DNA from: Armatimonadota bacterium
GTDB taxonomy: Bacteria > Armatimonadota > UBA5829 > JAUSEB01
Assembly (NCBI GenBank): GCA_030650495.1
Contig: JAUSEB010000032.1
Location: forward strand, 1 to 50,146
Length of the DNA: 50,146 bases
Direction of reading: 5' to 3'
Shown here: positions 680-49,415 of the stretch, in pieces
Layout: every line of letters starts with the position of its first letter
Numbering within the stretch: position 1 is the first letter of the stretch
Position numbers and translations under genes: made by a program
The notes under the pieces: generated by a model
What the model was told of the DNA's origin: nothing
Databases searched by the model: none
The model's input: the letters and a program-made list of their open reading frames with translations, nothing else

Positions 680-707
680 TTCTAACTCCTAACTTCTATC
701 TTCTATC
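680..707 (+). repeat. TTCTAAC heptamer array (4 units)
   Basis: ttctaac tcctaac ttctatc ttctatc. The stop codon of the minus-strand gene (703-705) lies in the last unit. Confidence 0.85.
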
Positions 708-1755
708 TTGCAATCCCAAACACATATATAGGATACAGAGCGTAGAAGAAACCGCCTATGAGGAGGGAATAGGGGCTGAGCCGTTTCCTGTAAGTCATCT
801 CGGCCCAGATGATTATCGTAGCTAGAATAGCTATCGCGGCGCTTGCCATCGCGCTCTTGTCGTGACTCAAGGCCCATGGGGTGAACAAAATCCCTATGGC
901 CGGGGTTATGCTGCTCTGAAATACCATCGCGCCGCTGATGTTGCCCAGCGCGAACGTGTCTTTCTTCTTCTTGACCCACGTGATGGAGTTGAACTTCTCC
1001 GGCAGCTCGGTCGCGATTGGCGCAATTATGAGGCCAAGGACAAGGCTGGAGACTCCAAGCGGCTTGGAAATGGCCGTCACGCTTTCCACGAACAACTTTG
1101 CGCCGATCAATATAGCCACAAGGCTTACCGCCACTTGCAAGGTTACTATCTTGAGATGCGGCAACACCGCGCTGCGATGGAAATGGAGAGGATTCGGCGT
1201 ATGATCAGCGCAATTGCCGCCTTCACCGGAGAAAGTACGCATCACATATTGGACGTAAGCCCCGACGAGGAACAACGCTATGGCTATCCTGACGGCGTAC
1301 CGGACTATTTCATTATCGCTGTGCATCCAAGGCAAGAAAGAGGCGCCTATTGCGACAATATAGACCATAAAGAACGCTCGCAGGTCCCTGCCCAGCACTT
1401 TGTGGTCTACCGTCATCTCCGTTTTGCGAATGCCGGCCCTGGCGAATACGATCACGGCAAGCCCGGTGATGAACATGGCTAGGGTGCTCAGCATCATAGG
1501 CGCGCCCAGTATGGCTCCAACGCCTACGTCGTGCGTCTTCGTCCCGGAAACCACGGCTATTATGGCAATGGATGTCTCAGGGAGGGCGGTACCTACCGCC
1601 GCCAAAACGCTACCGACCGCGCCTTCCGCCAACTGCAGTTTCTTTCCAAACCACTCTATACTGTTGGTGAACAGCTCGGCGGCTGCCAGAATCACCCCGA
1701 AGCTGACGGCGAGCAATACTACCGAGACTCCGATCGACATTTCAGGAAACGACAC
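703..1755 (-). CDS. CaCA-family Na+/Ca2+ (cation/Ca2+) exchanger membrane protein
   Basis: 350 aa, polytopic. Two alpha-repeat signatures, AVGTALPETSIAII and IAPIATELPEKFNSI. Confidence 0.85.
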   Translation of the reverse strand: MSFPEMSIGVSVVLLAVSFGVILAAAELFTNSIEWFGKKLQLAEGAVGSVLAAVGTALPETSIAIIAVVSGTKTHDVGVGAILGAPMMLSTLAMFITGLAVIVFARAGIRKTEMTVDHKVLGRDLRAFFMVYIVAIGASFLPWMHSDNEIVRYAVRIAIALFLVGAYVQYVMRTFSGEGGNCADHTPNPLHFHRSAVLPHLKIVTLQVAVSLVAILIGAKLFVESVTAISKPLGVSSLVLGLIIAPIATELPEKFNSITWVKKKKDTFALGNISGAMVFQSSITPAIGILFTPWALSHDKSAMASAAIAILATIIIWAEMTYRKRLSPYSLLIGGFFYALYPIYVFGIAR

Positions 1756-1802
1756 TTATAGGCTCCTTTCGCCTTATTATTTACTTTCGTTTAGCATGAT
1801 TT

Positions 1803-1909
1803 AACCTCCCCCAACCCCCCCTTCGTAAGGAGGGGAGTTCCGGGCTTCCCCCTTATAGGAAGGGAGCAATTATACTTCCCCCCTTTAGAAGGGGGGATTG
1901 AGGGGGGTT
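1803..1909. repeat. C-rich/G-rich three-hairpin element
   Basis: The outer arms aacctcccccaacccccc and ggggggattgaggggggtt enclose three small hairpins (ccccttcgtaaggagggg, ccctt-atagg-aaggg, cccccctttagaagggggg). Related copies lie at 44271-44344 and 25922-25958. Confidence 0.75.
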
Positions 1910-1916
1910 TTACTCA

Positions 1917-3161
1917 CTACTTCTGAACTGTTGGCTTTCGCCTTAGAAATATGAACGTTAATATCGTTGATACACTCAGCATAATTGCGCTCAGGACCAG
2001 CGGCGCGGAGTGGGCCTGGACAAATGGAACGCTGATCGAACCCTCATACATGTGTCCCCCGACAATCGCGCCCAATATGGCGCCGAGTCCCTGAGCCATG
2101 CCCACGGTTCCAAGAATCTCTCCTCGACGGGAAGACGAGGTCATCTCGGAAATCAGGGCAAGCCAGGCAGGCATAGCCATAAGGAAGCCCACACCGAGCA
2201 ACGAGCCGCCCAACACTAACGCCGGCTGGGCTCTGGTCGTGGCGATAACCCACATGGCGGTAGCCGCTATTAGAACTCCCAGCCTGACCGAACGCACTTT
2301 GCCCCATTTGTCGCCCAACCTGCCCAACGGCATAGCCAAAACCGCCAGCGTCGCGGCGGCGGGAAGGAGCAGCCAACCGTAGCCTTTTTCAGTAAGCCCA
2401 AGTTCGTCCATGGCGTACAATTTGACGATGGGAATCAACACGCCGACGCCGCCAAAAGCAAAAAACACCATTGCCAACATCTCCGGGATGGCGCGCAGGC
2501 TGTAAAGCAAAGAAGAAAGATGAATCGGCTGCGGCTCCTCCAAATGCGTCTCATGCCTGTGGGGCGCGGTTCGCTTTGGAATAGCCGCCAGGGCGATAAT
2601 GACCGTAAGTGCGAACATGCCGCCTATCGTGTAAAATACATACCGCTCGGAGCCGGTATACTCGCTCACCGCTCCTCCCACCAGCGGCCCCAGGGCAATG
2701 CCCGCCATATATGTGACGTTCAGGACGCTCATCGCCACGCTGCGATTCTTTTCATCGACCGTGTCCCCAACAAGCGCGAAGGCCGTGGGCCAAATTGCCG
2801 CCGCGCCGAGTCCATCCAAAATGCGAAGGGAGATCAAAGCCGCCGGGTCGACGGCCCTGGCGGTCAGGAACGCGGCGGCGCAGGAAGCTATTGGTCCGGC
2901 GATCAGAAGCGGCCTTCGGCCAACACGGTCGCCGAGAGCGCCCAGGGCGGGCCTGAACAACGCTTCCACCAGGAGGAAAGTCGCCAGTATCCAACCCAGC
3001 CATCCCGCGCTCAACTTCAGCTCTTTGACTACATAAGGTTGCAGCGCGGATTGGTTCATCGTGGCGTAACCAAGCTCCGCCAACAGGGCGATGACACCCA
3101 GGCCGGCGATAGCCCTACGCGCGGGAGCCTTTGACCATAGACCTTTGAGAAAAACCGTCAA
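1917..3161 (-). CDS. MFS transporter
   Basis: 414 aa with ~12 hydrophobic segments. MFS loop motif GALGDRVGRRPLL between TM2 and TM3. Confidence 0.85.
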   Translation of the reverse strand: MTVFLKGLWSKAPARRAIAGLGVIALLAELGYATMNQSALQPYVVKELKLSAGWLGWILATFLLVEALFRPALGALGDRVGRRPLLIAGPIASCAAAFLTARAVDPAALISLRILDGLGAAAIWPTAFALVGDTVDEKNRSVAMSVLNVTYMAGIALGPLVGGAVSEYTGSERYVFYTIGGMFALTVIIALAAIPKRTAPHRHETHLEEPQPIHLSSLLYSLRAIPEMLAMVFFAFGGVGVLIPIVKLYAMDELGLTEKGYGWLLLPAAATLAVLAMPLGRLGDKWGKVRSVRLGVLIAATAMWVIATTRAQPALVLGGSLLGVGFLMAMPAWLALISEMTSSSRRGEILGTVGMAQGLGAILGAIVGGHMYEGSISVPFVQAHSAPLVLSAIMLSVSTILTFIFLRRKPTVQK

Positions 3162-3181
3162 ATTCCGCTCTTAGCCTCCGA

Positions 3182-3219
3182 TTTAGAAGTTAGAAGTTGG
3201 AAGTTAGAAGGTAGGAGTT
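3182..3219 (-). repeat. GTTAGAA heptamer array (reverse orientation of TTCTAAC)
   Basis: tttagaa gttagaa gttggaa gttagaa ggtagga. This is the inverted partner of the array at 3413-3447. Confidence 0.85.
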
Positions 3220-3223
3220 GATA

Positions 3224-3359
3224 TGCTGCGGGAATGGTCTTACAGCAGAGACTTACACATTTAATCCACCACAATTCCCGCAGCTTGGTAGGCGATATTG
3301 CTGCGGGAACTACCTTATGCTTAAACAAAACTTTATCCAAACACACCGTTCCCGCAGCA
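3224..3359. repeat. two tandem ~60-nt hairpins with TGCTGCGGGAA stems
   Basis: tgctgcgggaat (3224-3235) pairs with attcccgcagc (3274-3284); tgctgcgggaac (3299-3310) pairs with gttcccgcagca (3348-3359). The ~38-nt loops share tt(a)atcca(a/c)c. Confidence 0.8.
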
Positions 3360-3412
3360 TAGAACTTTGGTATTGACATAGGGAGTCCGAAACACCGGCG
3401 CCGCCTACCTCA

Positions 3413-3447
3413 TTCTAACTTCTAACTCCTAACTTCTAACTTCTAAC
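3413..3447 (+). repeat. TTCTAAC heptamer array (5 units)
   Basis: ttctaac ttctaac tcctaac ttctaac ttctaac. The stop codon of the oxidoreductase gene (3443-3445) is inside the last unit. Confidence 0.9.
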
Positions 3448-4483
3448 CAATCTCCACTTCCTTGCCCGTCTTGGCGGACTTATATATCGCGTCGATTATC
3501 TTGGCCGTGATGAGACACTGCTCGCCGGTCACGAGAACCTCCGTGTCATTTCTAATGGCGTTTAGAAAGGCAATGATCTCCTGCTGGTATATATCGACCG
3601 TCGGCAAGGACACCGGCGTTACGTCTATCAATACTCCATGCTTTTCCTTGAACATCTTCACCGGCGTCATTTCGCAGCCGCCTTCAGTCCCTACGAGCGT
3701 TGCGTTGAAAATACCATGGTCTATATTGGCCGCAAAGCTGGACTCTACGACCATACTCGCGCCGTTCTCGAACCGCACAAAACCTGCCGCGAAATCCTCC
3801 ACGGTGTAGGTCTTAGGGTCCCAAGGCCCCCATGCGTTGCAGACGCCTTCTCGATTTCCGAATTTGGTGCAGGCCATGCCGGTAGCCGAAATCGGTTTGG
3901 GATGCCCCATAAGCCAAAGGGTCGTGTCCATCGCATGCACGCCGATGTCTATGAGCGGCCCGCCTCCCTGCTTTTCCTTGTTGGTGAAAACACCCCACGA
4001 AGGAACGCCCCGGCGGCGAGTCGCCTGAGCTTTTGCGTAGTAAACCTCGCCCATCTCCCCGTCGTCGACAAACCGCTTCAGGGCCTGGTTGCCGGGCTGG
4101 AAACGTATGCAATGAGCCACTTGCAGCTTTTTTTTGTTCCTATGCGCGGCGTCCACCATAACCTGAGCTTCGGCGGCGGTTCTGGCTATCGGCTTTTCGA
4201 CGATAACATGCTTCCCGGCGTTAAGACTGGCTACAGCAGCGGGGCTGTGAAAGTTATTCGGCGTGCAAACGTCCACCGCGTCGATCTCATCCAGCTTGAG
4301 CATCTCATTGTAGTCGGTGAACACGCGCTTCACGTTATATTTTTCAGCGACGGTCTTAGCAACATCCGGCAGAATATCGCAAATAGCGTAAATTTCCACA
4401 TCGGTCATCGCGGCATAATGCGGCAGGTGGTTTCCCTGACAGATGCTTCCCGTTCCTATAAAACCGATTTTCAATTTCTTCAA
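3443..4483 (-). CDS. Gfo/Idh/MocA family NAD(P)-dependent oxidoreductase
   Basis: N-terminal Rossmann motif KIGFIGTGSI and the EKP motif HVIVEKPIA. 346 aa. Confidence 0.85.
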   Translation of the reverse strand: MKKLKIGFIGTGSICQGNHLPHYAAMTDVEIYAICDILPDVAKTVAEKYNVKRVFTDYNEMLKLDEIDAVDVCTPNNFHSPAAVASLNAGKHVIVEKPIARTAAEAQVMVDAAHRNKKKLQVAHCIRFQPGNQALKRFVDDGEMGEVYYAKAQATRRRGVPSWGVFTNKEKQGGGPLIDIGVHAMDTTLWLMGHPKPISATGMACTKFGNREGVCNAWGPWDPKTYTVEDFAAGFVRFENGASMVVESSFAANIDHGIFNATLVGTEGGCEMTPVKMFKEKHGVLIDVTPVSLPTVDIYQQEIIAFLNAIRNDTEVLVTGEQCLITAKIIDAIYKSAKTGKEVEIG

Positions 4484-4577: not shown

Positions 4578-4619
4578 TTCTAACTTCTAACTTCTAACTC
4601 CTAACTTCTTACTTCTATC
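4578..4619 (+). repeat. TTCTAAC heptamer array (6 units)
   Basis: ttctaac x3, tcctaac, ttcttac, ttctatc. The rtcB stop codon (4615-4617) is inside the last unit. Confidence 0.9.
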
Positions 4620-6072
4620 CCTTCGCCACGCCCAGCGGCCGCATCTTGGCGACTTTTCTCGAAATGCCCGCCCCGTGTACGGCGTCGACTACGTCCGACA
4701 CATCCTTATAAGCATACGACGCCTCTTCCGGGAGCGTTCCTCGACTCTGGGCCCTCACGATTATCCCCTTCGCTTCCAAATCCCTTTGAACATCCTGGCC
4801 GCTTGCCCGCTTCATGGCCGCATGGCGGCTCATCAGCCTGCCCGCCCCGTGGCACGTTGAACCGAACGTCTGGCGCATCGCCTGGTCGGTTCCCACCAAT
4901 AAGAAGGAATACCGGCCCATATCGCCGGGAACGAGAACCGGCTGCCCGACTTTTCGATACGCGGCGGGTATGTCCGGGTTGCCGGGTCCGAACGCGCGAG
5001 TCGCGCCCTTGCGGTGCACGCAAAGGGACATGGTCTTGCCATCGACCTCATGCTCTTCTATTTTCGCTATGTTGTGAGCGACATCGTAGATCTGGCGCAG
5101 GCCCAGTTTATGCGCCCCGGCTCCCATTATACGCTCAAATGCCTCCCGTACCCAGTGCGCGATTGCCTGCCTGTTCGCCCAGGCGTAGTTCGCGGCGCAG
5201 GCCATGGCTCCCATATACTCTTTGCCCTCACGGGAGTTCACCGGCGCGCAGGCCAATTGGCGGTCGGGTATATCTATATTATAACGCTTTACGGCGCCTT
5301 GCATAACCTCCAGGCTGTCATCGCACACTTGATGCCCGAAACCGCGCGAGCCTGTGTGTATCATCACCGTGATTTGGCCGGGGCCGAAAATGCCGAACGT
5401 AGCGGCGGCGGCGTCATCGTAAATCTCATCCACGACCTGTATCTCAAGAAAATGGTTTCCGCTGCCGAGCGTGCCGAGCTGCGGTCGGCCTCGCTTTACT
5501 GCTTCGTTGGAGACGAATTCCGGCGTGGCTCCGGGGATACATCCGCCCTGCTCGGTCGCTTCGAGGTCGTCGTTCCAGCCGATGCCGTGTTCGACCATCC
5601 ATCGCGCGCCTTTTTTCATAACCTGCGCCAGCTCCGCCTCGTTCACCCTGATCCGGCCTTCGCTGCCGACACCGGCGGGCACGTCGCGGAACAGTTGATC
5701 GACCAAATCCCTGATCTTAGGCTGGACTTCCTCGATAGTGAGGTCGGTCCTGAGCATCCGCACACCGCAGTTGATGTCGAAACCCACGCCGCCCGGCGAG
5801 ACGACGCCGTCATCCACGGAAGTCGCCGCCACGCCGCCAATCGGGAAGCCGTAGCCCCAGTGGATATCCGGCATGGCCATCGATTTGCCCTGAATGCCGG
5901 GGAGAAACGCGACATTCGCGACCTGCTCCAGCGCCTCATCGTGGGTAATCGCCTCCATCATCCGCTCAGTCGCGTAGACAAGGCCGTCGGTCCGCATCCC
6001 GGACTTATAGGATTTGGGTATCAGCCATCTATAGTCATCAATTTGTTTGAGTCTCTTAGACCAGTCTGTCAT
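4615..6072 (-). CDS. rtcB: RNA-splicing ligase RtcB (3'-phosphate/5'-hydroxy RNA ligase)
   Basis: Motifs MPDIHWGYGFPIGG, GVGFDINCGVR, GSGNHFLEIQ, HTGSRGFGHQV, HRKGATRA and CHGAGR. ATG at 6072 is preceded by ggaagagg. The 6132 start would add 20 aa read from a palindromic repeat. Confidence 0.93.
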   Translation of the reverse strand: MTDWSKRLKQIDDYRWLIPKSYKSGMRTDGLVYATERMMEAITHDEALEQVANVAFLPGIQGKSMAMPDIHWGYGFPIGGVAATSVDDGVVSPGGVGFDINCGVRMLRTDLTIEEVQPKIRDLVDQLFRDVPAGVGSEGRIRVNEAELAQVMKKGARWMVEHGIGWNDDLEATEQGGCIPGATPEFVSNEAVKRGRPQLGTLGSGNHFLEIQVVDEIYDDAAAATFGIFGPGQITVMIHTGSRGFGHQVCDDSLEVMQGAVKRYNIDIPDRQLACAPVNSREGKEYMGAMACAANYAWANRQAIAHWVREAFERIMGAGAHKLGLRQIYDVAHNIAKIEEHEVDGKTMSLCVHRKGATRAFGPGNPDIPAAYRKVGQPVLVPGDMGRYSFLLVGTDQAMRQTFGSTCHGAGRLMSRHAAMKRASGQDVQRDLEAKGIIVRAQSRGTLPEEASYAYKDVSDVVDAVHGAGISRKVAKMRPLGVAKG

Positions 6073-6105
6073 ATTATTTGCCTCTTCCTGACGGAGGATA
6101 TATCG

Positions 6106-6130
6106 GTTTCGGCATTTGAAATGCCGAAAC
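6106..6130. repeat. perfect 12-bp palindrome gtttcggcattt/aaatgccgaaac in the rtcB leader
   Basis: gtttcggcattt g aaatgccgaaac. A member of the gtttcgg..ccgaaac family. Confidence 0.85.
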
Positions 6131-6177
6131 ACCGAATACGTGATACCCGGTCAGGGGTTGGTCGGAACAGAAAATCC

Positions 6178-7435: not shown

Positions 7436-7452
7436 TTGTTATATTTAAGCGC

Positions 7453-7484
7453 AGCTGTCAGCTGTCAGCTGACAGCTGACAGCT
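7453..7484. repeat. perfect 32-nt palindrome (AGCTGTC)2(AGCTGAC)2AGCT
   Basis: agctgtcagctgtcagctgacagctgacagct equals its own reverse complement. It encodes the last residues (..QLSADS) and the stop codon of the DUF721 gene. Confidence 0.95.
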
Positions 7485-9154: not shown

Positions 9155-9174
9155 TGATTTAGTATTACGATCAC

Positions 9175-9252
9175 GTCATTCCGAACATAATAAGGAATCT
9201 GCTTTTTCTGAATTCGGTATAAAAGCAGATTTCTCGACTTCGCTCGAAATGA
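9175..9252. mobile_element. diverged short member of the gtcattc...gaatgac MITE-like family
   Basis: The ends gtcattccgaacataataaggaatc and gatttctcgacttcgctcgaaatgac flank a palindromic core tgcttttt...aaaagca. Confidence 0.55.
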
Positions 9253-9261
9253 CAAAACAGT

Positions 9262-9515
9262 CAGCCGGCGCGTATTTCCTAATACTATATATTATACTTA
9301 TTTGGTAGTAGTGGTAGTAGTCACTGTGGAAACTGTGGAAATCCGGGAATTCCAAGCGCGGCCACGAGGAAAATCGGATGTGCATAAAATAATATGTTTA
9401 GGAAGCTCAACTGTGAGGAATAGTACTTGTTTTCCACAAGAGTCCACATGGAAAAATCGAAAAGAAGAGTCCACACGTCGTCCACAGAGTTATCATCAGG
9501 TAACTAACAGAGTTA
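9262..9515. other. candidate oriC segment: AT-rich tract plus DnaA-box cluster
   Basis: AT-rich tract at 9274-9303. Box-like 9-mers at 9324-9332, 9333-9341, 9379-9387, 9430-9438, 9440-9448, 9467-9475 and 9478-9486 (TCCACA/TGTGGA cores). It lies between dnaA and recF. Confidence 0.6.
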
Positions 9516-10883
9516 TTAACACCCGTTTCGGAGCTTGTTGGTAAGCTCGTCGAGAGCGCGGACAAGAGAGGCGTCCGAAGCCGCAAGCTCTTTAACCTTG
9601 GCGCACGCATGCAGTACGGTCGAGTGGTCTCTCCCGCCGAACGCCCTTCCTATGCTGACCAGGGACGCTGATGTGAGTTCTCGCGCAAGGTACATGGCCA
9701 CCTGGCGGGCAATAACAAGCTCTTTTGTTCTCCTGGCTCCCGTGAGGTCTTCCTGAGAGACGGAGAACTTGAGGCACACGGCCTCCTGGACCGCCGCCGG
9801 GTCCAAAGCACGCGGGGCGGAATCGCCGAAATACCCGCCGAGAACGTCTGCGGCGAGAGTTGGCGTGACGGGCATTTTCATAAGAGAGGCGTATGCGTGA
9901 AGTTTGATCAGCGCGCCTTCAAGCGCCCTTATGTTGGAACGAATCAGCTTGGCGATATACAAAATCACGTCGTCCGGCAGGGTCATATTCTCGTCGAGGG
10001 CCTTCTGCTGGAGTATGGCCATTCGGGTTTCCAGATCAGGCTCGACTATGTCGGCGACGAGGCCGCATTCAAATCTGGAAAGAAGCCGCTCGTCGAGCTG
10101 CAGGTCTTTCGGCGGCTTGTCGCTCGATAAGACGATCTGTTTCCGAGTCTCGTAAAGGGCGTTATATGTGTGGAAGAATTCTTCTTCGGTGCGTTCTTTG
10201 CCTGCGATGAACTGGATATCGTCCACCAGCCAAACGTCAACGTTTCGATATTTCCTGCGGAACTCAGAGTTGCTGCGCTCTCTAAGCGACGTGACGTAGT
10301 GATGGGTGAAGGTCTCGCCTGATACGTAGACCACCCGCGCGTTGGGTTTGGACTCAACTACTTTTTGCCCTATGGCGTGAAGCAGGTGGGTTTTGCCAAG
10401 CCCCGGTCCGCCGTAAAGGAACAAGGGATTATAGGTCTTGCCGGGCCGCTCGGCTACCGCGAAGCAGCTCGCGTGCGCCAGGCGGTTGCAGGGGCCGACG
10501 ACGAAGGTGTCGAACGTATAATGGTCGTTCAGCGGTAGAGAGAAAGGATCCTCCCGCGATTTTCTTGGCGCCGGTTGGGGAAGTTTTTGCTGGGTTACAG
10601 GCGGGTCTACAGACTCCCCGTATGCCAACTGTATGGTAACGTCCATCTCCAGGAACGAGTCCAGGATAGCCTTTATGGTTTTAAGGTGTTTGCTTTCTAT
10701 CCAGCGCTTCGCGAAAAGGCTGGCAGTGCCAAGCAGCATTACTTTGCCGTCGAAGTCCAGGGGTATGATGGGCCTGATCCAGGTATTGAATGAGGCTTTG
10801 TTCGATTGAGCGGCAAGCGTGTCCAGCACGTGTTGCCAAGCTTGCTGAAGAATCGCGTCTAGTTCATCTTCACCTAATTGCAT
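9516..10883 (-). CDS. dnaA: chromosomal replication initiator DnaA
   Basis: Walker [14 protein letters not shown], Walker [11 protein letters not shown]-terminal DNA-binding region [30 protein letters not shown] prefer the ATG at 10883, because the TTG at 10985 lies inside the predicted promoter. Confidence 0.93.
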
Positions 10884-11019: not shown

Positions 11020-11084
11020 GATGTTTCGGGATTTTTGTCTCAACATGCCTAGCGGGCTTAATCTAACCGAAATCCCGAAACATC
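11020..11084. repeat. gtttcggga-family hairpin (15-bp stem)
   Basis: gatgtttcgggattt (11020-11034) pairs with aaatcccgaaacatc (11070-11084). The same stem and right flank occur at 34350-34451. Confidence 0.9.
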
Positions 11085-11086
11085 AA

Positions 11087-11149
11087 CTCATCACTCATCA
11101 CTCATCACTCATCACTCATCACTCGTTACTCGTTACTCATCGCTCATTA
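11087..11149 (+). repeat. CTCATCA heptamer array (9 units)
   Basis: ctcatca x5, ctcgtta x2, ctcatcg, ctcatta. Confidence 0.95.
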
Positions 11150-11171
11150 CTGGCCGCTCCCTCCCGCAGGT

Positions 11172-12596: not shown

Positions 12597-12709
12597 TAGG
12601 TGATGGGTGTTAGTGATAGGTGTTGGGTGCTAGGTGATGGGTGTTGGGGAAACCGGAACCATCAACGATCTTCCCCCCATCCCCCAACACCTAATACCCA
12701 ACACCCACC
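12575..12709. repeat. GGTGTTG/GGTGATA heptamer array folding on a CAACACC array
   Basis: The left arm (12575-12649; ggtgata ggtgatg ggtgtta ...) and right arm ccccccatcccccaacacctaatacccaacacccacc (12673-12709) are imperfect complements. The stop TGA at 12594-12596 lies inside the array. Confidence 0.85.
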
Positions 12710-12740
12710 AGTACAATTACCGGTTTTGAACCACGTTTGA

Positions 12741-33143: not shown

Positions 33144-33178
33144 CGGGTTTGCGGCGCTTTCTGCGCTTCATCCCCCAA

Positions 33179-37080: not shown

Positions 37081-37198
37081 AGGGAGTCGAGAGTCGAGGG
37101 ATAGTTGAAGGTTGAATGTTGAAGGTTTAAGGTATCGCTTGCGCCACGCTCCCCTTCAACATTCAACGTTAAGCATTCAACTCTCTAAACTCTCAACT
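37081..37198. repeat. heptamer-array hairpin element, copy 2 of 2 (see 511-600)
   Basis: gggagtcgagagtcgaggga..gttgaatgttgaagg..ccttcaacattcaac..tctctaaactctcaactc. Confidence 0.85.
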
Positions 37199-37200
37199 CA

Positions 37201-37240
37201 TATCTGCGTTTATCTGTGTCCATCGGCGTTCATCTGCGTT
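37201..37240 (+). repeat. decamer tandem repeat x4
   Basis: atctgcgttt atctgtgtcc atcggcgttc atctgcgttc. Confidence 0.85.
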
Positions 37241-37331
37241 CTTTTCCAAACCCTCAACCCTTACCACTTGTGGTTCAGTATTTAGCGGCGTTGGGTAATA
37301 AGCCGTCTGGTCGAAATGCGCGCCTCGTTGG

Positions 37332-37361
37332 TTGACAATCTGAGCGCGCGAGGGCTATAAT
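37332..37361 (+). promoter_or_regulatory. consensus promoter TTGACA-18-TATAAT
   Basis: ttgaca at 37332-37337 and tataat at 37356-37361, upstream of the phosphohexomutase gene. Confidence 0.6.
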
Positions 37362-38759: not shown

Positions 38760-38763
38760 GGAG

Positions 38764-38794
38764 GCTATCAGCTGTCAGCTATCAGCTGACAGCT
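38764..38794. repeat. AGCTGTC-family palindrome
   Basis: agctgtcagct (38770-38780) pairs with agctgacagct (38784-38794), loop atc. It is preceded by a degenerate unit gctatc. Confidence 0.9.
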
Positions 38795-38845
38795 TGGCGC
38801 CGATTGCGCCGGGACACTCGTCTTTTAAGACAACGCCTCACTCAT

Positions 38846-38952
38846 GTCATTCTGAGGAGCGAAGCGACGAAGAATCTAATCTGTTGTATATATAGCGTAA
38901 CGCATATACATATTTACAGCCTGTGTAGATCCTTCACTTCGTTCAGGATGAC
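38846..38952 (-). mobile_element. MITE-like element, copy B (107 nt, inverted relative to copy C)
   Basis: The reverse complement matches 47104-47210 at 98/107 positions by hand alignment. The ends are gtcattctgaggagcgaagcgacgaagaatc and gatccttcacttcgttcaggatgac. Confidence 0.8.
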
Positions 38953-38988
38953 GGGTTTACAGCGAATTCATAAATAACCAAGACGACA

Positions 38989-39058
38989 GTGGGAACGCTG
39001 CGGCGAGCGTTCCCTACGGAATCTGATTGTAGGGAACGGACGCCGTTCCGTTCCGACA
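38989..39058. repeat. two-hairpin repeat, copy 2 of 2 (see 6178-6244)
   Basis: Hairpins gggaacgctgcggcgagcgttccc (38991-39014) and gggaacggacgccgttcc (39032-39049). Confidence 0.8.
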
Positions 39059-39059
39059 T

Positions 39060-39091
39060 AGCTGTCAGCTGAAAGCTGACAGCTGACAGCT
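39060..39091. repeat. AGCTGTC-family palindrome
   Basis: agctgtcagct gaa agctgacagct is identical to the core at 47257-47281, plus an extra gacagct. Confidence 0.9.
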
Positions 39092-39111
39092 AAAAACGCG
39101 GAGGTAATTTT

Positions 39112-43038: not shown

Positions 43039-43056
43039 CCGGCGCTCTGATTTATT

Positions 43057-43149
43057 GGGAGTGTTCAAAAACCGTAGCCTAGCCCTTTATGGGCGTCGTG
43101 ACGGGGACAAGCCCCTAGGCTACAGGAAATAGAAATTTTGAACACTCCC
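43057..43149. repeat. nested palindrome (gggagtgttcaaaaa / gtagcctag family) in the atpE-atpF spacer
   Basis: gggagtgttcaaaaa (43057-43071) pairs with ttttgaacactccc (43136-43149). Inner pair gtagcctag..ctaggctac. Confidence 0.9.
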
Positions 43150-43204
43150 TACTGCGACGGTATCTTTGAAAAAGAAGAACCCGCGGGCGATAGGAGGGTC
43201 TTGA

Positions 43205-43708: not shown

Positions 43709-44244
43709 TCGACAGCAGGATAACCAGGCGATACGTGACCGCGCTGTACGACGCGGCGGAGAAGGCGGGAGTCCCTGACCTTGTGGAGAGCGACCTCGGT
43801 TTGATCACGTACACTCTGGAAAGTATGCCTAACCTTCGAGACGCGCTTTTGCAGCCTCTTATTCCGGCTTCGAGGAAAAAAGAAATCGTCTCTCAGGTGT
43901 TTCAGGGCAAGGTCCATGATATTACTCTGCACTATTTGTTCCTTATCATCGATATGGACCGCGCCGAAGTCATCGAGCAGACGGAGTCCGAATTCATCCG
44001 TATCGCGAACGAACGGCGAGGGATTATCGCCGCTGAAGTTCGCTGCGCGGTGGAATTGACGCAGGAGCAAATCAAACGGCTAAAAGAGAAATTGGATGCC
44101 TATACGGGCAAAAAGGTTGAAATAAGTTTGTTAATAGATGAGTCGCTCATCGGCGGGTTGAGCGTGAAAATCGGCGACACCGTATTGGACGGAAGCATCA
44201 CCGGCTATCTGGCCCGGCTGAAAGAGCAATTGTTGAAAAGTTGA
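43705..44244 (+). CDS. atpH: F1 ATP synthase subunit delta (OSCP)
   Basis: The GTG start overlaps the atpF stop (GTGA). RYVTALYDAAEK..., C-terminal LIGGLSVKIGDTVLDGSI. Confidence 0.9.
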   Translation: MIDSRITRRYVTALYDAAEKAGVPDLVESDLGLITYTLESMPNLRDALLQPLIPASRKKEIVSQVFQGKVHDITLHYLFLIIDMDRAEVIEQTESEFIRIANERRGIIAAEVRCAVELTQEQIKRLKEKLDAYTGKKVEISLLIDESLIGGLSVKIGDTVLDGSITGYLARLKEQLLKS

Positions 44245-44383
44245 GAGTTTAGGGTTTAGGGTTGAGAGAAACCTCCCCCTAACCCCCTCCCACAGGGAGG
44301 GGGGATTTGCCCCCTCTCCTTTTAGGGGAGGGTTGGGGTGGGGTCTTATTCTAACTTCTAACTTCCAACTTCTAACCTCTAAA
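44243..44383. repeat. composite spacer: TAGGGTT heptamers, C-rich multi-hairpin element, TTCTAAC array
   Basis: gagagtt tagggtt tagggtt gagagaa (44243-44270); acctccccctaaccccctcccacagggagggggg..cccctctccttttaggggagggttggggtggggt (44271-44344); ttctaac x2, ttccaac, ttctaac, ctctaaa (44349-44383). Confidence 0.85.
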
Positions 44384-44396: not shown

Positions 44397-45911
44397 ATGG
44401 CGGTAACGATCAGGCCTGAAGAAGTAACTACTATACTGGAACAGCAGCTTGCGGGCTACAAAAAGGAACTGCGGGAGGTCGGCGTCGGCACGGTTTTGCA
44501 GGTCGGCGACGGCATCGCGCGCATTTACGGCTTGCAGGACGTTATGGCGAGTGAGCTGGTGGAGTTTCCAAATGGCGTTATGGGAATGACGCTGAACCTT
44601 GAAGAAAACAATATCGGCTGCATCATTTTAGGCTCCGACGTGGGGATAAAAGAAGGCGACATTGTTAAGCGCACCGGACGCATCGCCGACGTTCCCGTTG
44701 GCGGCGCAATGACCGGGCGCGTGGTGGACGCTCTTGGAAACCCGATTGACGGCAAAGGGCCGGTTGTCACAACCGAGCGGCGGCATATTGAAGGCCACGC
44801 TCCCGGCGTCGTAGAGCGAATGCCTGTCAACCAGTCTTTGCAGACCGGCCTGAAGTCGATCGACTCGATGATCCCGATTGGCCGGGGACAGAGAGAGCTT
44901 ATCATCGGCGACCGCCAGACCGGAAAGACCGCCATCGCCGTGGATACCATTTTGAACCAGAAGGGCCAGGATGTGTTCTGCATTTACGTTGCGATAGGCC
45001 AGAAGATGTCTACAGTCGCGCAAATCGTGCAGACGTTTGAGGAAAACGGCGCCATGGAATATACGACCGTCGTCGCGGCGACCGCCGGCGACCCGGCTCC
45101 CCAGCAGTATATCGCGCCTTATGCGGGCTGCGCTCTGGGCGAGTATTTCCGCGATAACGGCAAGCACGCATTGGTAATTTACGACGATCTTTCAAAGCAC
45201 GCGCAGGCTTACAGAGAGGTTTCGCTTCTGCTTCGCCGGCCGCCGGGCCGCGAGGCTTATCCCGGCGACATCTTTTATTTGCACGCGAGACTCCTGGAGC
45301 GCGCCGCGAAGTTGAACGAAGAGCTTGGCAGCGGAAGTCTGACCGCCCTGCCGATCATCGAAACCCAGGCGGGAGACGTTTCGGCGTATATTCCTACGAA
45401 CGTCATCTCAATCACCGATGGGCAGATTTATCTTGAAAGCGATTTGTTCTATTCCGGCATCCGTCCCGCTATCAACATCGGCGTGTCGGTCTCAAGAGTA
45501 GGAAGCAAGGCGCAAATCCCGGCGATGAAGAAAGTGGCGGGAAGCCTCAAGATGGACTTGGCGAGATATTGGGAGCTTCAGGCGTTCGCCCAGTTCTCAA
45601 GCGACCTCGATAAAGTAACTTTAGCCCAGCTTGGACGCGGAGAGCGGATTGTGGAAGTCCTCAAACAACCGCAGTATACGCCAATACCCGTTGAAGACCA
45701 GGTTATGATTATCTACGTGGCGACGAACGGCTACCTGGACGATTTGCCCGTTCCCGCTATCAAGAAGTTCGAGCGCGAGTTCTACACGTTTATGCATGAC
45801 AAATATCCTGAGCTTGGGCTGCAAATCAAGCAGACCGGCAAACTGACTGATGAGAACATAGAGACACTAAAGAAAGCGGCAACGGAGTTTAAATCGGAGT
45901 TTAGAGTTTAG
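44397..45911 (+). CDS. atpA: F1 ATP synthase subunit alpha
   Basis: Walker [14 protein letters not shown]; 504 aa; RBS gggagtg. Confidence 0.97.
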
Positions 45912-46006
45912 AGAAACCGGATTCGGAAATCCGGCCTTAGCTTTGGGGTGGCGATTCGGAAATCGCCACCCAGTCCCGTTCTCTCAACTCTCAACTCTCA
46001 ACTAAC
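45897..46006. repeat. GAGTTTA array / two small palindromes / TCTCAAC array
   Basis: gagtttagagtttagag overlaps the atpA stop at 45909-45911. Then ccggattcggaaatccgg (45917-45934), ggtggcgattcggaaatcgccacc (45947-45970) and tctcaac x3 (45982-46002). The two arrays are complementary apart from one mismatch per unit. Confidence 0.85.
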
Positions 46007-46858
46007 ATGGGTATGCGAGACATCCGGACCAGGATCAAAGTAGTCCGGAACATAGAGAAAATAACGAGCGCGATGAAGATGGTCGCCGCAGCGCGCCTGA
46101 AGAAGGCGCAAAACAAGGCAGAGGCCGCCCGCCCGTACGCCAACATGATGAGCCTGGTTATGGAGAGCTTGTCGCGGGCGTCGGCGGGAATAGAGCATCC
46201 GCTTCTCGAAGTCAGGCCGGAAGAGAACATCGCGGTTATCGTCATCGGCGCCGATAGAGGATTGGCCGGAAGCTATAACTCCAACGTTATGCGCAGGACT
46301 ATTGAGCTTCTGCGCGGCAGGGACGAACAGAGCGTCCGCCTTGTCCTGCTTGGCCGGAAATCCGTGAACTTTTTCCGCAAGAGGAAATACCCGGTCGCCG
46401 CGACGCTCAGCGTCCCGACTTCCAACGTGGGATTTGCCGACATTAGGCCGGTCGCCGCGAAGATTCGAGACTTGTTTGAATCGAAGGAAGTAGACGCGGT
46501 CTATCTCGTATATTCGCAATTCGTAACGGCGATGACCCAGCGGCCAACCGCTATAAAGCTGCTGCCTATCGAGCCTTCCGTGGGCGAGGAAGAGCCTGGC
46601 GGCGAGTTCATCTTCGAGCCGGGAGCCGAAGTACTCCTCGGCAGGCTTTTGCCGCGTTACGTTGACACGCAGATTTACAGAGCGTTGGTCGAGGCTGTTG
46701 CCAGCGAACACGGGGCCAGAATGACATCGATGTCCGCCGCGACCAAAAACGCGGGCGAGATGATAGACAATTTGACACTTTCATATAACAAAGCGCGCCA
46801 GGCCGCGATCACGAAAGAAATATCGGAGATCGTGAGCGCGGCGGAGGCGTTGAAATAG
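46007..46858 (+). CDS. atpG: F1 ATP synthase subunit gamma
   Basis: IRTRIKVVRNIEKITSAMKMVAAARL N-terminus and ITKEISEIVSAAEAL C-terminus. Confidence 0.95.
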   Translation: MGMRDIRTRIKVVRNIEKITSAMKMVAAARLKKAQNKAEAARPYANMMSLVMESLSRASAGIEHPLLEVRPEENIAVIVIGADRGLAGSYNSNVMRRTIELLRGRDEQSVRLVLLGRKSVNFFRKRKYPVAATLSVPTSNVGFADIRPVAAKIRDLFESKEVDAVYLVYSQFVTAMTQRPTAIKLLPIEPSVGEEEPGGEFIFEPGAEVLLGRLLPRYVDTQIYRALVEAVASEHGARMTSMSAATKNAGEMIDNLTLSYNKARQAAITKEISEIVSAAEALK

Positions 46859-46916
46859 CTATCAGTTATCAGTTATCAGCTGTCAGCTGTCAGCTGTCAG
46901 CTGACAGCTGACAGCT
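46857..46916. repeat. AGCTGTC-family array/palindrome (8.5 units)
   Basis: agctatc agttatc agttatc agctgtc x3 agctgac x2 agct. It starts inside the atpG stop codon. Confidence 0.95.
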
Positions 46917-46923: not shown

Positions 46924-47078
46924 CGGCTTCGGCTTCAAAGAGGGAGTGTTCAAAAAGTCCTATATACCTGTAGCCTAGGGCTTTATGCCCGTCAATTCAC
47001 GCTCAGGTTGACTGCAATATGACGCCCACAAGGGGCTAGGCTACGGTTTTTGAACACTCCCAAGAACAAGCCGAAGCA
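46924..47078. repeat. three-layer nested palindrome
   Basis: gcttcggctt/aagccgaagc (outer), gggagtgttcaaaaa/tttttgaacactccc (46942-46956 / 47047-47061), gtagcctaggg/ggctaggctac (inner). The inner 99 nt is nearly identical to 34455-34553. Confidence 0.9.
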
Positions 47079-47103
47079 TATTTAGCCGACACTTCGCTAT
47101 TCC

Positions 47104-47210
47104 TTCATTCTGAACGAAGTGAAGAATCTACACAGGTAGTAAATATGTATATACGTTATGCTATATATACAACAAATTAGATTATTCGTCGCTTCGCTCC
47201 TCAGAATGAC
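47104..47210 (+). mobile_element. MITE-like element, copy C (107 nt)
   Basis: The ends ttcattctgaacgaagtgaagaatc and gattattcgtcgcttcgctcctcagaatgac flank an AT-rich core. It is followed by gggtttgcggc. Confidence 0.8.
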
Positions 47211-47254
47211 GGGTTTGCGGCTGTCGTTTAGTGAATGATGGCTGCTAGTGAAAG

Positions 47255-48715
<1,461 letters not shown>

Positions 48716-48730
48716 ATAAGCATAGGATGA

Positions 48731-48935
48731 CTATCCTTCGGCTCGTTCTTTGGAGCCGAAGACAACGTAGCATTGACGGCTTCGGCTTCAAAATGGGAGT
48801 GTTCAAAAACCGTAGCCCCGGCCCTTGTGGCCGGTCGGGCGACAGTGAAATCTACCTCAGCAGACGGGGCACAAGGCCCCGAGCTACAGAGGAATCGGCA
48901 TTTTTGAACATTCCAGAAAACGAGCCGAAGGATAG
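48731..48935. repeat. 205-nt multi-layer nested palindrome filling the atpD-atpC spacer
   Basis: A perfect 17-bp outer stem: ctatccttcggctcgtt (48731-48747) pairs with aacgagccgaaggatag (48919-48935). Inside are gccgaag/cttcggc, gggagtgttcaaaaa/tttttgaacattcc and gtagcc..gagctac. Confidence 0.9.
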
Positions 48936-48961
48936 CTAAAAGGAAACAGAGTACTTAGAAT

Positions 48962-49384
48962 ATGGCCGGCAGAACGTTTCGGTTGGAAATAGTGACTCCA
49001 GAGCGCGTCGTGATAGCCGATGACACGATTACGTCAGTAGTCGCGCCTGGGTCGGAAGGTTATTTGGGCGTAATGGCCAATCACGCGCCCTTGCTGACGG
49101 AGTTGATGGTCGGCCAGGTTGACATCAGACGCTCCGATGACTCCGAAACGGGTGTCGCCACAAGCGGCGGCTTCATGGAAGTCAGCGCAAATAGGGTCAT
49201 AATCCTTGCCGATACGGCGGAGCTTGCCGAAGAGATCGACATAACCCGCGCCGAAGAGGCAAAACGTCGCGCGGAAGTACGGCTCAGCAGGCGCAATGAG
49301 GATGAAGTAGATTCCGCAAGGGCTGAGACGGCGGTATCTCGCGCGATGAACCGGCTGCACGTGGTCGAGCATTTCCGCAGGTAA
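48962..49384 (+). CDS. atpC: F1 ATP synthase subunit epsilon
   Basis: LEIVTPERVV..., GYLGVMANHAPLLTEL, GGFMEV, and a C-terminal helical hairpin. Confidence 0.93.
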   Translation: MAGRTFRLEIVTPERVVIADDTITSVVAPGSEGYLGVMANHAPLLTELMVGQVDIRRSDDSETGVATSGGFMEVSANRVIILADTAELAEEIDITRAEEAKRRAEVRLSRRNEDEVDSARAETAVSRAMNRLHVVEHFRR

Positions 49385-49387
49385 ATT

Positions 49388-49415
49388 GGTTGTCGGTCGA
49401 TGGTTGATAGTTCAG
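49388..49415 (+). repeat. degenerate GGTTGAT heptamer array (4 units)
   Basis: ggttgtc ggtcgat ggttgat agttcag, directly after the atpC stop. Confidence 0.7.

Follow-up and report, generated by a model that had tools for sequence, protein, structure and literature searches.

What are the tandem arrays of 7-nucleotide units that occupy the intergenic spacers of contig JAUSEB010000032.1 (assembly GCA_030650495.1), which comes from an uncultured bacterium probably belonging to the Armatimonadota, and why do so many of them begin at a stop codon? We addressed these questions in the window, by which we mean the entire contig of 50,146 bp, together with related loci from other genomes and from metagenomes. 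It is near certain that the arrays are dispersed heptanucleotide simple-sequence repeats, of the same kind as the short tandemly repeated repetitive (STRR) sequences of cyanobacteria and the heptamers of Xanthomonas and Nostoc. Our preferred account, to which we give a probability of roughly 60%, is that arrays of this known kind are born locally and serve in RNA stems; for the stem function of the paired arrays taken by itself, which we model from predicted folds, the odds are about even.

Period-7 arrays are concentrated in non-coding DNA

Tandem Repeats Finder (TRF) returned 45 rows for the window, 24 of them with a period of 7, and an independent autocorrelation scan detected 24-26 period-7 arrays, compared with 1.35 in block-shuffled sequence. 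As controls, the same scan gave 0-6 arrays at periods 4-6, 8 and 10-12, and 8 arrays at period 9. Non-coding DNA makes up 12% of the window, and all but one of the period-7 rows (23/24) fall inside it or across its border (binomial P = 2e-20), the lone row outside it being the short repeat at 34195-34209 (2.1 copies, score 30), and where arrays overlap open reading frames (ORFs) the overlap is confined to the last 1-6 codons. The arrays thus show both properties of long simple sequence repeats (LSSR), that is, tandem units above chance and exclusion from coding DNA of units that are not a multiple of three. Their density, a figure that refers to this single 50-kb contig, is 0.5 per kb, against 0-1 per 20 kb in three more distant Armatimonadota-like loci (L001-L003).

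The original prediction, made from the letters alone, had described about ten intergenic heptamer families, usually paired with an inverted array, and these results establish that the arrays are real, intergenic and often paired, since about 17 of them are self-complementary or have an inverted partner. TRF recovered repeats at essentially all the positions proposed, except that the array at 49388-49415 is too degenerate for either TRF or the scan. The assertion that the period is always 7 holds for the 24 TRF rows but not for GGAGTCG at 512-534 and GGAGTAG at 25837-25868, which score at period 9.

An assembly artefact, which had been named as a possible undoing of the prediction, can be set aside because paired assemblies agree through the arrays and every array is far shorter than one read: array sequences were identical in three assembly pairs of relatives from different sources (ENA/Logan, NCBI/Logan and ENA/JGI), pairs that may share reads. 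Hardly more credible is a reading of the arrays as contingency (phase-variation) loci. Heptamers that phase-vary the promoter and 5' untranslated region of hmw1A in Haemophilus influenzae (PMC12721329; PMC8262952) provide a precedent, but the arrays of the window lie past stops between housekeeping cistrons, neither inside ORFs nor between -35 and -10 elements.

The units form two classes. In the first, one strand is free of C (GTTAGAA, GTTGAAG, GTTGAGA, GAGTTTA, TTTAGGG, GGTTGAT, GGTGWTR and TGATGAG); the second consists of AGCTGTC and AGCTGAC (together AGCTGWC), which are mutual reverse complements, and an AGCTGTC run followed by an AGCTGAC run is a perfect palindrome. G-tracts (GGG) appear only in TTTAGGG, with 2.4 copies, and in parts of the GGTGWTR array; the main units have none. 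We rejected a CRISPR reading, as the arrays hold no unique-sequence spacers, and also a telomere-like or contaminant one. The unit TTTAGGG (44247-44263) equals the plant-type telomere repeat sequence and could trigger contamination filters, but the likeness is a coincidence because there are only 2.4 copies, inside the atp cluster.

Arrays adjoin stop codons and follow a strand rule

At 12 of the 14 stop boundaries of array-bearing spacers an array overlaps the stop or begins no more than 3 nt from it, compared with 4.0 expected at random (P<5e-5), and leaving out two doubtful arrays gives 10 of 12. Counting the array at 12581-12648 as stop-adjacent depends on a 456-aa ORF (11226-12596) of doubtful gene status. 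Mostly, the first unit itself supplies the stop: GATAGAA/GTTAGAA ends the Na/Ca exchanger, GFO and RtcB genes with its TAG, GTTGAGA ends atpH with TGA, and TAGCTATC ends atpG with TAG.

The strand is equally regular. In the sense of the terminating gene the array is G-rich and C-free, and ahead of starts it is G-free, in 10/10 informative spacers on our reading; the complementary G-free array, or AGCTGWC, often stops 4-33 nt short of the start codon that follows. Past stops, the G-rich strand lies in sense in 7:1 arrays of the window, 2:0 of its close relatives and 26:7 of all skewed period-7 arrays from other phyla. For metagenomes we used the exact 21-mer TTCTAAC x3, found in at least 120 contigs (GC 0.31-0.68, mostly with a single array), which served for the orientation test and not for lineage-wide density: 34/65 (GTTAGAA)n arrays start at the end of a same-strand frame of at least 100 codons, versus 10/62 in the opposite orientation (Fisher P = 1.8e-5) and 3.2 at random. 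Over all data together the rule holds by 69 vs 18 (P = 3e-8), and inverted pairs have the G-rich arm first by 28 vs 8, some of the 8 being tandem-hairpin artefacts.

A supply of stops in all three frames was considered as the cause of this orientation and rejected as sufficient, for GTTAGAA (through TAG) and TTCTAAC (through TAA) both provide them; because both strands do so, slippage alone predicts no orientation. A replication-strand rule was not evident in the window, where TTCTAAC lies on the plus strand in both replichores (left 3/4, right 2/2, with the origin taken near 9.2-11.2 kb), albeit in small numbers. The stop and strand rule extends to units unable to form quadruplexes and to several further phyla, which weakens the quadruplex explanation. 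The arrays are as follows; GFO stands for a GFO/IDH oxidoreductase, MFS for a major facilitator superfamily transporter and PGM for phosphoglucomutase.

512-602, plus strand: copy 1 of a hairpin element, in the convergent spacer downstream of the ferredoxin gene (TRF; fold z = -2.8). It includes GGGAGTCGA x2.6 with period 9 at 512-534 (TRF; related to the repeat at 25837-25868, with 507-539 matching), a C-free 5' arm of GTTGAAG x4.3 at 536-565 and a G-free 3' arm of TTCAACA x2.3 at 587-602.
680-709, plus strand: TTCTAAC x4.3, single; read in the direction of the Na/Ca exchanger gene, on the minus strand, it is GTTAGAA, and its outermost unit supplies the TAG stop (703-705).
3183-3219, plus strand: TTAGAAG x5.3, an inverted copy of TTCTAAC; on the mRNA (minus) strand it is CTTCTAA and stops 18 nt short of the MFS start, with GGAGG between; 3' arm of the stem closing the GFO-to-MFS spacer.
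3413-3447, plus strand: TTCTAAC x5.0, GTTAGAA in the GFO/IDH sense, whose outermost unit supplies the TAG stop (3443-3445); 5' arm of the GFO-to-MFS stem.
4578-4617, plus strand: TTCTAAC x5.7, single, GTTAGAA in the RtcB sense, whose outermost unit supplies the RtcB TAG stop (4615-4617).
7452-7484: AGCTGTC x2 then AGCTGAC x2, a perfect palindrome filling the 22-nt spacer from the DciA-like stop to the glycosyltransferase start (TRF; predicted hairpin -28.6 kcal/mol, z = -5.6).
11081-11151, plus strand: CTCATCA x10, G-poor, single, in the divergent spacer between dnaA and the 456-aa ORF of uncertain status.
12581-12710, plus strand: C-free GGTGWTR x9.9 (12581-12648) with an inverted, G-free CAACACC-type array (12674-12710), a hairpin upstream of the GH9 gene (duplex -54 kcal/mol, fold z = -2.3).
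22755-22789, plus strand: GGTTGAT x4.9, overlapping the Dps/ferritin stop (22763-22765); the unit recurs in relatives at 3536-3570 of L081 (reverse complement) and, as GGTTGAC, past the atpC stop of L083.
22944-22965, plus strand: G-free TCCTAAC/TTCTAAC x3.1, 33 nt before the PAS sensor kinase start and weakly complementary to 22755-22789 (duplex -14 kcal/mol).
25837-25868, plus strand: G-rich repeat of period 9 (or 18), beginning directly past the PAS kinase stop (TRF).
26975-26999: self-complementary AGCTGTC/AACTGAC x3.6, 13 nt before the DUF488 gene start.
37084-37181, plus strand: copy 2 of the hairpin element (GAGTCGA x2.1, GTTGAAG x4.3, TTCAACA x3.9; TRF places GTTGAAG/CTTCAAC at 37104-37181), in the spacer from which the DUF3604 and phosphoglucomutase genes diverge.
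38764-38794, plus strand: AGCTATC/AGCTGTC/AGCTGAC x4.4, starting 4 nt past the phosphoglucomutase stop; 5' arm of the PGM-to-serS spacer.
39060-39095, plus strand: AGCTGTC AGCTGAA AGCTGAC AGCTGAC AGCTAA, the 3' arm, which stops 14 nt short of the serS start and is separated from it by GGAGG (duplex with 38760-38798, -58 kcal/mol).
44237-44269, plus strand: C-free GTTGAGA/GTTTAGG, with the atpH TGA stop (44242-44244) in the first unit; 5' arm of the atpH-to-atpA spacer (TRF: TTTAGGG at 44247-44263).
44349-44382, plus strand: G-free TTCTAAC x4.9, ending 13 nt before the atpA start; it matches the array ahead of the MFS gene in the order of unit variants and in its junction to the Shine-Dalgarno sequence. 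The atpH-to-atpA arms pair via G-U (duplex -20 kcal/mol sense vs -14 antisense; fold z = -2.7).
45897-45913, plus strand: GAGTTTA x2.4, overlapping atpA's final four codons and its TAG stop (45909-45911).
45981-46003, plus strand: G-free CTCTCAA x3.3, the 3' arm, which reaches the atpG start (46007 or 46013) without a Shine-Dalgarno sequence (the arms pair in the fold of 45890-46012, which reaches -48.9 kcal/mol with z = -4.8).
46857-46916, plus strand: AGCTATC/AGTTATC/AGCTGTC/AGCTGAC x8.6, starting within the atpG TAG stop (46856-46858); 5' arm of the 459-nt atpG-to-atpD spacer.
47257-47302, plus strand: AGCTGTC AGCTGAA AGCTGAC AGCTGAT AGCTAAT AGTTAAC, the 3' arm, ending 17 nt before the atpD start with GGAGG between (arm duplex -67 kcal/mol).
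49388-49415, plus strand: degenerate GGTTGTC GGTCGAT GGTTGAT AGTTCAG, 3 nt past the stop of atpC, with 9 nt left to the gene that follows, below TRF and scan thresholds; the GGTTGAC array past the atpC stop of L083 is orthologous.

Paired arrays are predicted to close whole spacers

At least nine nearby inverted pairs or self-complementary arrays in the window are able to form stem-loops. Minimum-energy folds pair the stop-side with the start-side array in the GFO-to-MFS, atpH-to-atpA, atpA-to-atpG, atpG-to-atpD and PGM-to-serS spacers, so that the entire spacer becomes one closed domain. In the first of these, the fold of 3162-3460 on the minus strand reaches -121 kcal/mol (z = -8.7) with its arms paired, the arm duplex contributing -42 kcal/mol, and arm duplexes range from -20 to -67 kcal/mol. 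Predicted stems of ~19-45 bp close the GFO-to-MFS, PGM-to-serS, atpG-to-atpD and atpA-to-atpG spacers and, if transcribed, have about the length of double-stranded RNA, ~20 bp or more, expected of RNase III stems. As anatomy, therefore, the structural punctuation that had been proposed for the arrays stands: they start at stops, and predicted folds close entire spacers.

Location inside polycistronic units suggests that the arrays are transcribed. None of 30 matches to intrinsic terminators lies on an array, the counts being at shuffle level, and no promoter-like consensus was found on arrays or inside the atp spacers, a lack which fits read-through transcription.

What the arms enclose are other small dispersed palindromes, namely the families GTTTCGGG...CCCGAAAC and CCCCCTAACCCCCTCC...GGGAGGGG, the nested palindrome GGGAGTGTTCAAAAA / GTAGCCTAGGGC and a miniature inverted-repeat transposable element (MITE) of ~115 nt. 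The first is a clade-wide hairpin family, GTTTCGGG(A/G)...CCCGAAACAACGG, found in the window at 613-665, 11022-11085, 34352-34450 and 6105-6135, in L081 at 9876-9905 and in the atpA-atpG spacers of L206 and L207; it is often the cargo between heptamer arms, and the L206 copy is close to the window copy at 613-665. The C-run/G-run palindromes CCCCCTAACCCCCTCC...GGGAGGGGGG...GGGTTGGGGTGRGG occur at 1800-1915, 25920-25960 and 44271-44343 and in the atpA-atpG spacers of L083 and L208; at the atpH-atpA junction of the window, as at atpA-atpG in those two relatives, they stand each time beside a G-type array ending GAAACC. The nested palindrome, GGCTTCGGCTTCAAA-GGGAGTGTTCAAAAA ... GTAGCCTAGGGC...GCCCCTAGGCTAC ... 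TTTTTGAACACTCCC, occupies three atp spacers (43056-43150, 46924-47063 and 48777-48915), and a 111-nt copy, 91% identical, lies beside the DUF3604 gene (34455-34565). The MITE-like element, with inverted ends GTCATYCTGAGSRGCGAAG...CTTCRCTTCGYTCAGRATGAC and an AT-rich core, is present at 32990-33160, 38840-38970 and 47090-47225, two of the three in array-bracketed spacers.

Arrays grow from gene ends, are copied as blocks and turn over

We compared six close relatives (L081, L083, L205, L206, L207 and L208) with the three more distant loci introduced above. In L205, which lacks the array after atpA, and in the more distant L002, the atpA coding end (CAGTTTACAGTCTAG and CAGTTTACATTCTGA, respectively) is already an imperfect 7-nt direct repeat, and elsewhere this end has been turned progressively into an array running past the stop (CAGTTTAGAGTGTAGAGTGGAG in L207, GAGTTTAGAGTTTAGAG in the window, GAGTTTAGAGTTTAGTGTTTAGAGTTGAGAG in L081 and GGGTTTAGAGTTGAGGGTTGAGGG in L083). 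The GAGTTTA array at 45897-45913 appears, from this series, to have grown from native atpA 3' coding sequence.

The spacers themselves have expanded. The atpA and atpG genes overlap or lie 4 nt apart in the distant loci (TAATG, TGATG, TAACAAATG) vs 95-200 nt in the window's clade, and the atpD-to-atpC spacer measures 246 nt in the window vs 3 nt in relatives. Between atpG and atpD the distance is 17 nt in L081 (TAGCTTCAAACGGAGG), 86 nt in L083, 459 nt in the window and 511 nt in L207; the window and L207 have the form TAGCT[array-cargo-array]AGCTTCAAA(T/C)GGAGG, and L208 keeps a two-unit remnant.

Arrays also recur as blocks within the window. The segments 39058-39093 and 47255-47290, ahead of serS and atpD, are 97% identical and have their variant units in the same succession; an identity of 86% over 81 nt, loop and variant-unit order included, links 523-603 with 37091-37171; and 3413-3457 and 4585-4629 are 89% identical over 45 nt. 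The arrays ahead of atpA and of the MFS gene have in common the order TTCTAAC TTCCAAC TTCTAAC YTCTAAA up to the Shine-Dalgarno sequence.

At one and the same junction, units change between relatives with 72-82% AtpG identity: ahead of atpG we found CTCTCAA, CAACCAA, CAACTGT and CGACTAA, and past atpG the relatives have AGCTGWC, AGTGGCT or nothing. A period-7 array is nonetheless kept ahead of atpG in 6/6 close relatives, G-free in L081, L083, L205 and L207 and G-poor in L206 and L208. Each relative has a cargo of its own; in L207 (1132-1491, 72% AtpG identity) the atpG-atpD cargo is a 119-aa 23S_rRNA_IVP gene (four-helix-bundle, bAvd-like; E = 4e-38) between two AGCTGAC arrays. Orthologous junctions thus keep arrays while units and enclosed cargo turn over, and, judged from these alignments, ordinary slippage together with recombination or template switching would be enough for growth, copying and turnover.

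Two rivals to our account are the main ones, and both are partly compatible with it. The first takes the arrays as neutral debris, by-products of slippage tolerated in non-coding DNA, with no RNA or regulatory role and with a stop adjacency left over from ancestrally tiny spacers. The tiny junctions of the distant loci (TAATG, TGATG, TAACAAATG) and of L081 (17 nt) are as it expects, and so are the rapid gain, loss and unit change among relatives and an arm pairing without sense-strand bias; moreover, 35 years of published work have assigned no clear function to heptamer repeats (PMC4692102; PMC4679880). Slippage alone predicts no orientation, however, and the strand rule is cross-phylum; arrays also adjoin stops in non-operon spacers of 130-280 nt, and the G-free or G-poor array ahead of atpG survives the turnover of its units in all six close relatives. 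We therefore regard pure debris as unlikely.

The second makes [array - loop/cargo - inverted array] a MITE- or REP-like non-autonomous element (REP, repetitive extragenic palindrome), which a transposase encoded elsewhere would insert at stops and in whose loop later elements would nest. The two 86%-identical GTTGAAG hairpins at unrelated loci, the nearly identical AGCTGWC blocks ahead of serS and atpD, a module of array, GAAACC and CCCCCTAACCCCCTCC at atpH-to-atpA in the window and at atpA-to-atpG in L083 and L208, the cargo that differs per relative (including the 23S_rRNA_IVP gene of L207) and the insertion-like boundary TAGCT[...]AGCTTCAAA facing an empty site in L081 all point this way. 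In the 50 kb of the window, families have two or three copies each at 86-97% identity, with termini that coincide with the arrays themselves. Against it, the window contains no transposase (RAYT or insertion sequence), and we identified no target-site duplication that was consistent: the AGCT on either side of the atpG-to-atpD insertion belongs to the unit itself, and a DDE_5 gene lies 8 kb off in L083 only. Local birth is favoured by the G-type arm at atpA, which derives from the coding end of atpA itself; arrays are often single, arm copy numbers are unequal, and the empty site of L081 could equally be a deletion between direct repeats. Mobility of this kind is a possibility to be taken seriously, although we give it less than even chances.

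A putative role as intercistronic stems

In the account that we favour, arrays would be born from chance 7-nt proto-repeats at gene ends, for example in atpA, where CAGTTTACAGTCTAG would become GAGTTTAGAGTTTAG...., and would be resized by slipped-strand mispairing. Symmetry or spread would come via template switching, gene conversion or transposition of a hairpin as a block, and arrays would survive only where a 7-nt length change cannot shift a reading frame. Transcribed together with the cistrons of operons like the atp cluster, the arms, 20-45 bp long, would form REP-like intercistronic stems, and these may be RNase III substrates or hairpins that protect 3' ends. At atpA-to-atpG, where the 3' arm lies at a start codon without a Shine-Dalgarno sequence, the stem might keep the initiation region hidden as long as no ribosome that terminates within the 5' arm has opened it, and the two genes would then be translationally coupled despite the inflated spacer. 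The known coupling of translation through RNA structure at the atpH-atpA junction of E. coli follows equal logic. Whether stems act in processing or in coupling is directly testable on a few atp junctions.

Several observations weigh against a selected RNA stem. Arm-only duplex energies have no sense (G-U) advantage (-450.8 sense vs -461.1 antisense), and because of this the complementarity of the arms looks like a DNA-level property, with selection on mRNA not demonstrable from it; the sense advantage of whole spacers comes from internal elements and not from the arms. Since the arrays at 680, 4578 and 11081 are single, as are most metagenome TTCTAAC arrays, the stop-codon rule does not depend on pairing. 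The array past atpA and the one ahead of atpG are barely complementary in L207 and L083. With spacers this short, the arrays lie no closer to start codons than chance would allow (P = 0.23; metagenome 11/64 vs 5/60), and the start-side preference of the arrays is only a trend. Finally, nothing measured accounts for a unit length of 7 nt.

A bolder form of the stem model treats paired arrays as a device resembling an intervening sequence (IVS), placed in mRNA: the arms would zip co-transcriptionally and enclose selfish palindromes or an IVP gene, an RNase III cut or ribosome opening would keep the junction working, and the G-first chirality, which we observed across at least five phyla and for units that form no G-quadruplex, would be selected at the mRNA level. 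We consider this speculative and distinctly improbable. If true, bacterial operons would follow a general architectural rule that has gone unrecognised, and heptamer repeats would have a function.

In a different role, the arrays would be multivalent sites bound by a regulator that recognises RNA or DNA (S1, Csp- or CsrA-like, or other) and controls the translation or transcription of neighbour genes. A G-free or G-poor array without a Shine-Dalgarno sequence stands directly before atpG in the window and in 5/6 relatives (L081 has AAGG), like TAACTGA in Beggiatoaceae (PMC4679880), and for Nostoc a preprint reports that recO reporter activity changes on deletion of heptamer repeats (10.1101/2022.06.06.494920). 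We nevertheless think such sites quite improbable as the explanation here, as about ten units in 50 kb need many factors or one of very loose specificity, units turn over at one site between close relatives, no regulator gene is linked to arrays in the window, and the neighbour genes have no common function.

Heptamer arrays extend beyond this lineage

Among 80 atp loci from other species, several carry heptamer-built hairpins, some of them at the atpA-atpG junction itself. The following loci are examples.

L029, Vicinamibacterales: 29 arrays in 21 kb, units GTAGKCA / CTACTGM.
L058, Acidobacteriota: 17 arrays, units CAGAAGA / TCTTCTG, and GGGATTC.
L048, Synergistia: 10 arrays, units GTTGAGA / CTCAACC.
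L030, Nitrospiraceae: 8 arrays, units TTCTTAC / TTCTAAC.

These loci bear on the suggestion, made in the original prediction, that a dedicated mechanism of this lineage generates or spreads 7-nt units. A period fixed at 7 across about ten unrelated units and the density contrast with L001-L003 would suit such an enzyme. But heptamer hairpins also occur in the atp loci of Acidobacteriota, Synergistia and Nitrospiraceae and in published cases, TTCTAAC x3 is present in the at least 120 contigs mentioned above, no candidate gene was found linked to the arrays, and the birth of an array from a coding proto-repeat needs slippage only. The suggestion is not supported by this comparison, and we hold a dedicated mechanism to be very improbable. 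Among the matches listed in our literature search, none treats heptamer repeats together with Armatimonadota/Armatimonadetes.

Host and gene content of the window

The best AtpA match in a search of 185,579 species genomes is 78% identical and comes from an Armatimonadota metagenome-assembled genome (MAG); the best AtpG matches are 82%, 80% and 79% identical, and the one at 79% together with several named ones of lower identity are labelled Armatimonadota/Armatimonadetes. By these relatives the host is probably an uncultured member of the Armatimonadota. The window holds one atpZ-I-B-E-F-H-A-G-D-C cluster, and on this single cluster and the nearest AtpA/AtpG relatives the host is not cyanobacterial, which bears out the view that the arrays are STRR-like without a cyanobacterial host. 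The atpG start is at 46007 or 46013, the called start being the second ATG.

Up to ~11 kb the genes lie on the minus strand (Na/Ca exchanger, MFS transporter, GFO/IDH oxidoreductase, RtcB, GT4 glycosyltransferase, DciA-like, RecF and DnaA), with the ferredoxin gene at 153-437 as the sole plus-strand gene. Beyond ~11 kb almost all are on the plus strand, with three minus-strand exceptions (26028-26858, 33179-34318 and 34538-36994); they include two very large glycoside hydrolases, Dps, the PAS sensor kinase, a DUF488/DuOB/RecQ cluster, phosphoglucomutase, SerRS, a HAD hydrolase and the atp cluster. No known RNA families or tRNAs were found in the window.

A replication origin is likely at the dnaA-recF spacer (9155-9515), which contains clustered DnaA-box-like motifs (ACTGTGGAA x2, TTTTCCACA and GTCCACA x3), with the gene strand switch near 11 kb: genes to the left of the dnaA region are nearly all minus, ferredoxin excepted, and those to the right mostly plus. 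The cumulative GC skew reverses only at ~18-22 kb, and dnaN is not present between dnaA and recF.

The ORFs at 12883-16746 and 16866-22118 were at one point considered as rpoB and rpoC because of their length, and this was rejected, as Pfam identifies a GH9 cellulase-like and an apiosidase-like/CBM9 protein; the link of these ORFs to the 'alternate beta-prime' story of PMC4679880 is therefore void. They encode secreted-type proteins of 1287 aa (GH9+CelD_N) and 1750 aa (DUF5060+apiosidase-like+CBM9), and paralogous segments inside the two recur at an offset that stays at 5363 nt. Neither the 456-aa ORF (11226-12596) that separates dnaA from the GH9 gene nor a 280-aa ORF on the opposite strand has a Pfam match, and the gene status of the 456-aa ORF is uncertain.

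The genes at 27013-32957 (DUF488, a 661-aa ORF with no Pfam match, DUF488, DuOB (dual OB) and a RecQ-like helicase), with overlapping or very short junctions, look like a conflict/defence-type operon. Within the 5' part of the called RecQ-like ORF (30699-32957), a 51-nt tandem repeat x2.6 at 30813-30945 consists of GGTTTCGGGG...CCCCGAAAC hairpins with a CA-rich linker, and an identical 31-nt hairpin lies past the ORF stop (32970-33000); probably the true RecQ start is downstream of ~30950, or else the hairpins are translated. Other tandem repeats that are not heptamers are ATCTGCGTTC x4 (period 10) at 37202-37241, beside the hairpin upstream of phosphoglucomutase, and a 26-nt unit x2 at 84-135. 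A perfect TTGACA-18-TATAAT promoter-like site is located at 37332-37361.

Comparison with known systems

Bacterial heptanucleotide repeats have been known since 1990 in the form of STRR, which were reportedly described in heterocystous cyanobacteria by Mazel et al. in that year, and we know of neither a function nor a mechanism that has been established for them. The arrays of the window resemble STRR in their tandem 7-nt units, in having several families and in being dispersed in non-coding DNA. They differ in that the host is not a cyanobacterium and in the stop-codon anchoring and arm pairing documented here; no unit of the window matches what we take to be the STRR unit sequences.

REP sequences, bacterial interspersed mosaic elements (BIME) and MITE-like palindromes of proteobacteria are dispersed hairpins just past stops in operons, which are transcribed and act as 3'-end stabilisers or processing sites. 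The arrays described here likewise form dispersed intergenic hairpin families at stops inside operons, and by this analogy the paired ones most likely work like REP/BIME hairpins. REP stems are not built of tandem 7-nt units, however, and we do not claim membership.

STRR are cited in PMC4692102 as three heptanucleotides in Calothrix PCC 7601. The closest parallels are the repeats described by Rehm et al. 2015 (PMC4692102), GGGAATC in Xanthomonas and GGGGA(C/T)T in Nostoc PCC 7120, which have a period of 7 and form hundreds of dispersed intergenic arrays of ~2-18 units. Their sense G-rich strand lies no more than 50 bp from a stop or overlaps it, and the sense C-rich strand lies upstream of ORFs; there are 70-75 inverted pairs per Xanthomonas genome, repeats sit mainly between co-oriented genes, length and sequence vary at one junction among close relatives, and most repeats are transcribed (PMC4692102). 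The window is alike in period, in the G-rich sense strand on the stop side and in frequent inverted pairs. It differs in that the main units have no G-tract and no G-quadruplex potential, in holding about ten unit families in 50 kb where one dominant unit is found there, in arms that bracket entire spacers filled with small palindromes, and in phylum.

According to the summary of Mrazek, Guo and Shah 2007 in PMC4679880, heptamers are the most abundant class of 5-11-nt repeats in most of the repeat-rich prokaryotic genomes examined, with a sporadic phylogenetic spread, exclusion from coding DNA of units that are not a multiple of three, and polymerase slippage as the proposed origin. That work, as summarised, is a statistical survey and leaves aside the hairpin and spacer-closing architecture and the block copying found here. 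The TAACTGA repeats of marine Beggiatoaceae, some Cyanobacteria and Bacteroidetes adjoin, in 2-6 copies, starts without a canonical ribosome-binding site (MacGregor 2015, PMC4679880). An array a few nt before a start without such a site is also found at atpG, L206 has CTGATAACTGA ahead of atpG, and in both cases a unit occurs in distant phyla; but Beggiatoaceae have a single dominant unit, an inverted partner in 1/170 and an emphasis on start codons, and the window has many units, frequent pairs and a robust stop anchor.

In the Coxiella 23S rRNA IVS, tandem GACAGAT heptamers lie at the RNase III site (PMC4990558). There, as here, a long stem surrounds dispensable cargo, and the L207 cargo is a gene of the 23S_rRNA_IVP family. 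The spacers described here belong to mRNA and not rRNA, the cargo in the window consists of small palindromes with no IVP gene, and the stems are predicted.

Heptamer over-representation, sense-strand stop adjacency and inverted pairs are thus already published (PMC4679880; PMC4692102). To these, the window adds a new phylum, many co-existing unit families, a spacer-closing arrangement whose cargo turns over, and an array whose birth can be traced to the final codons of atpA.

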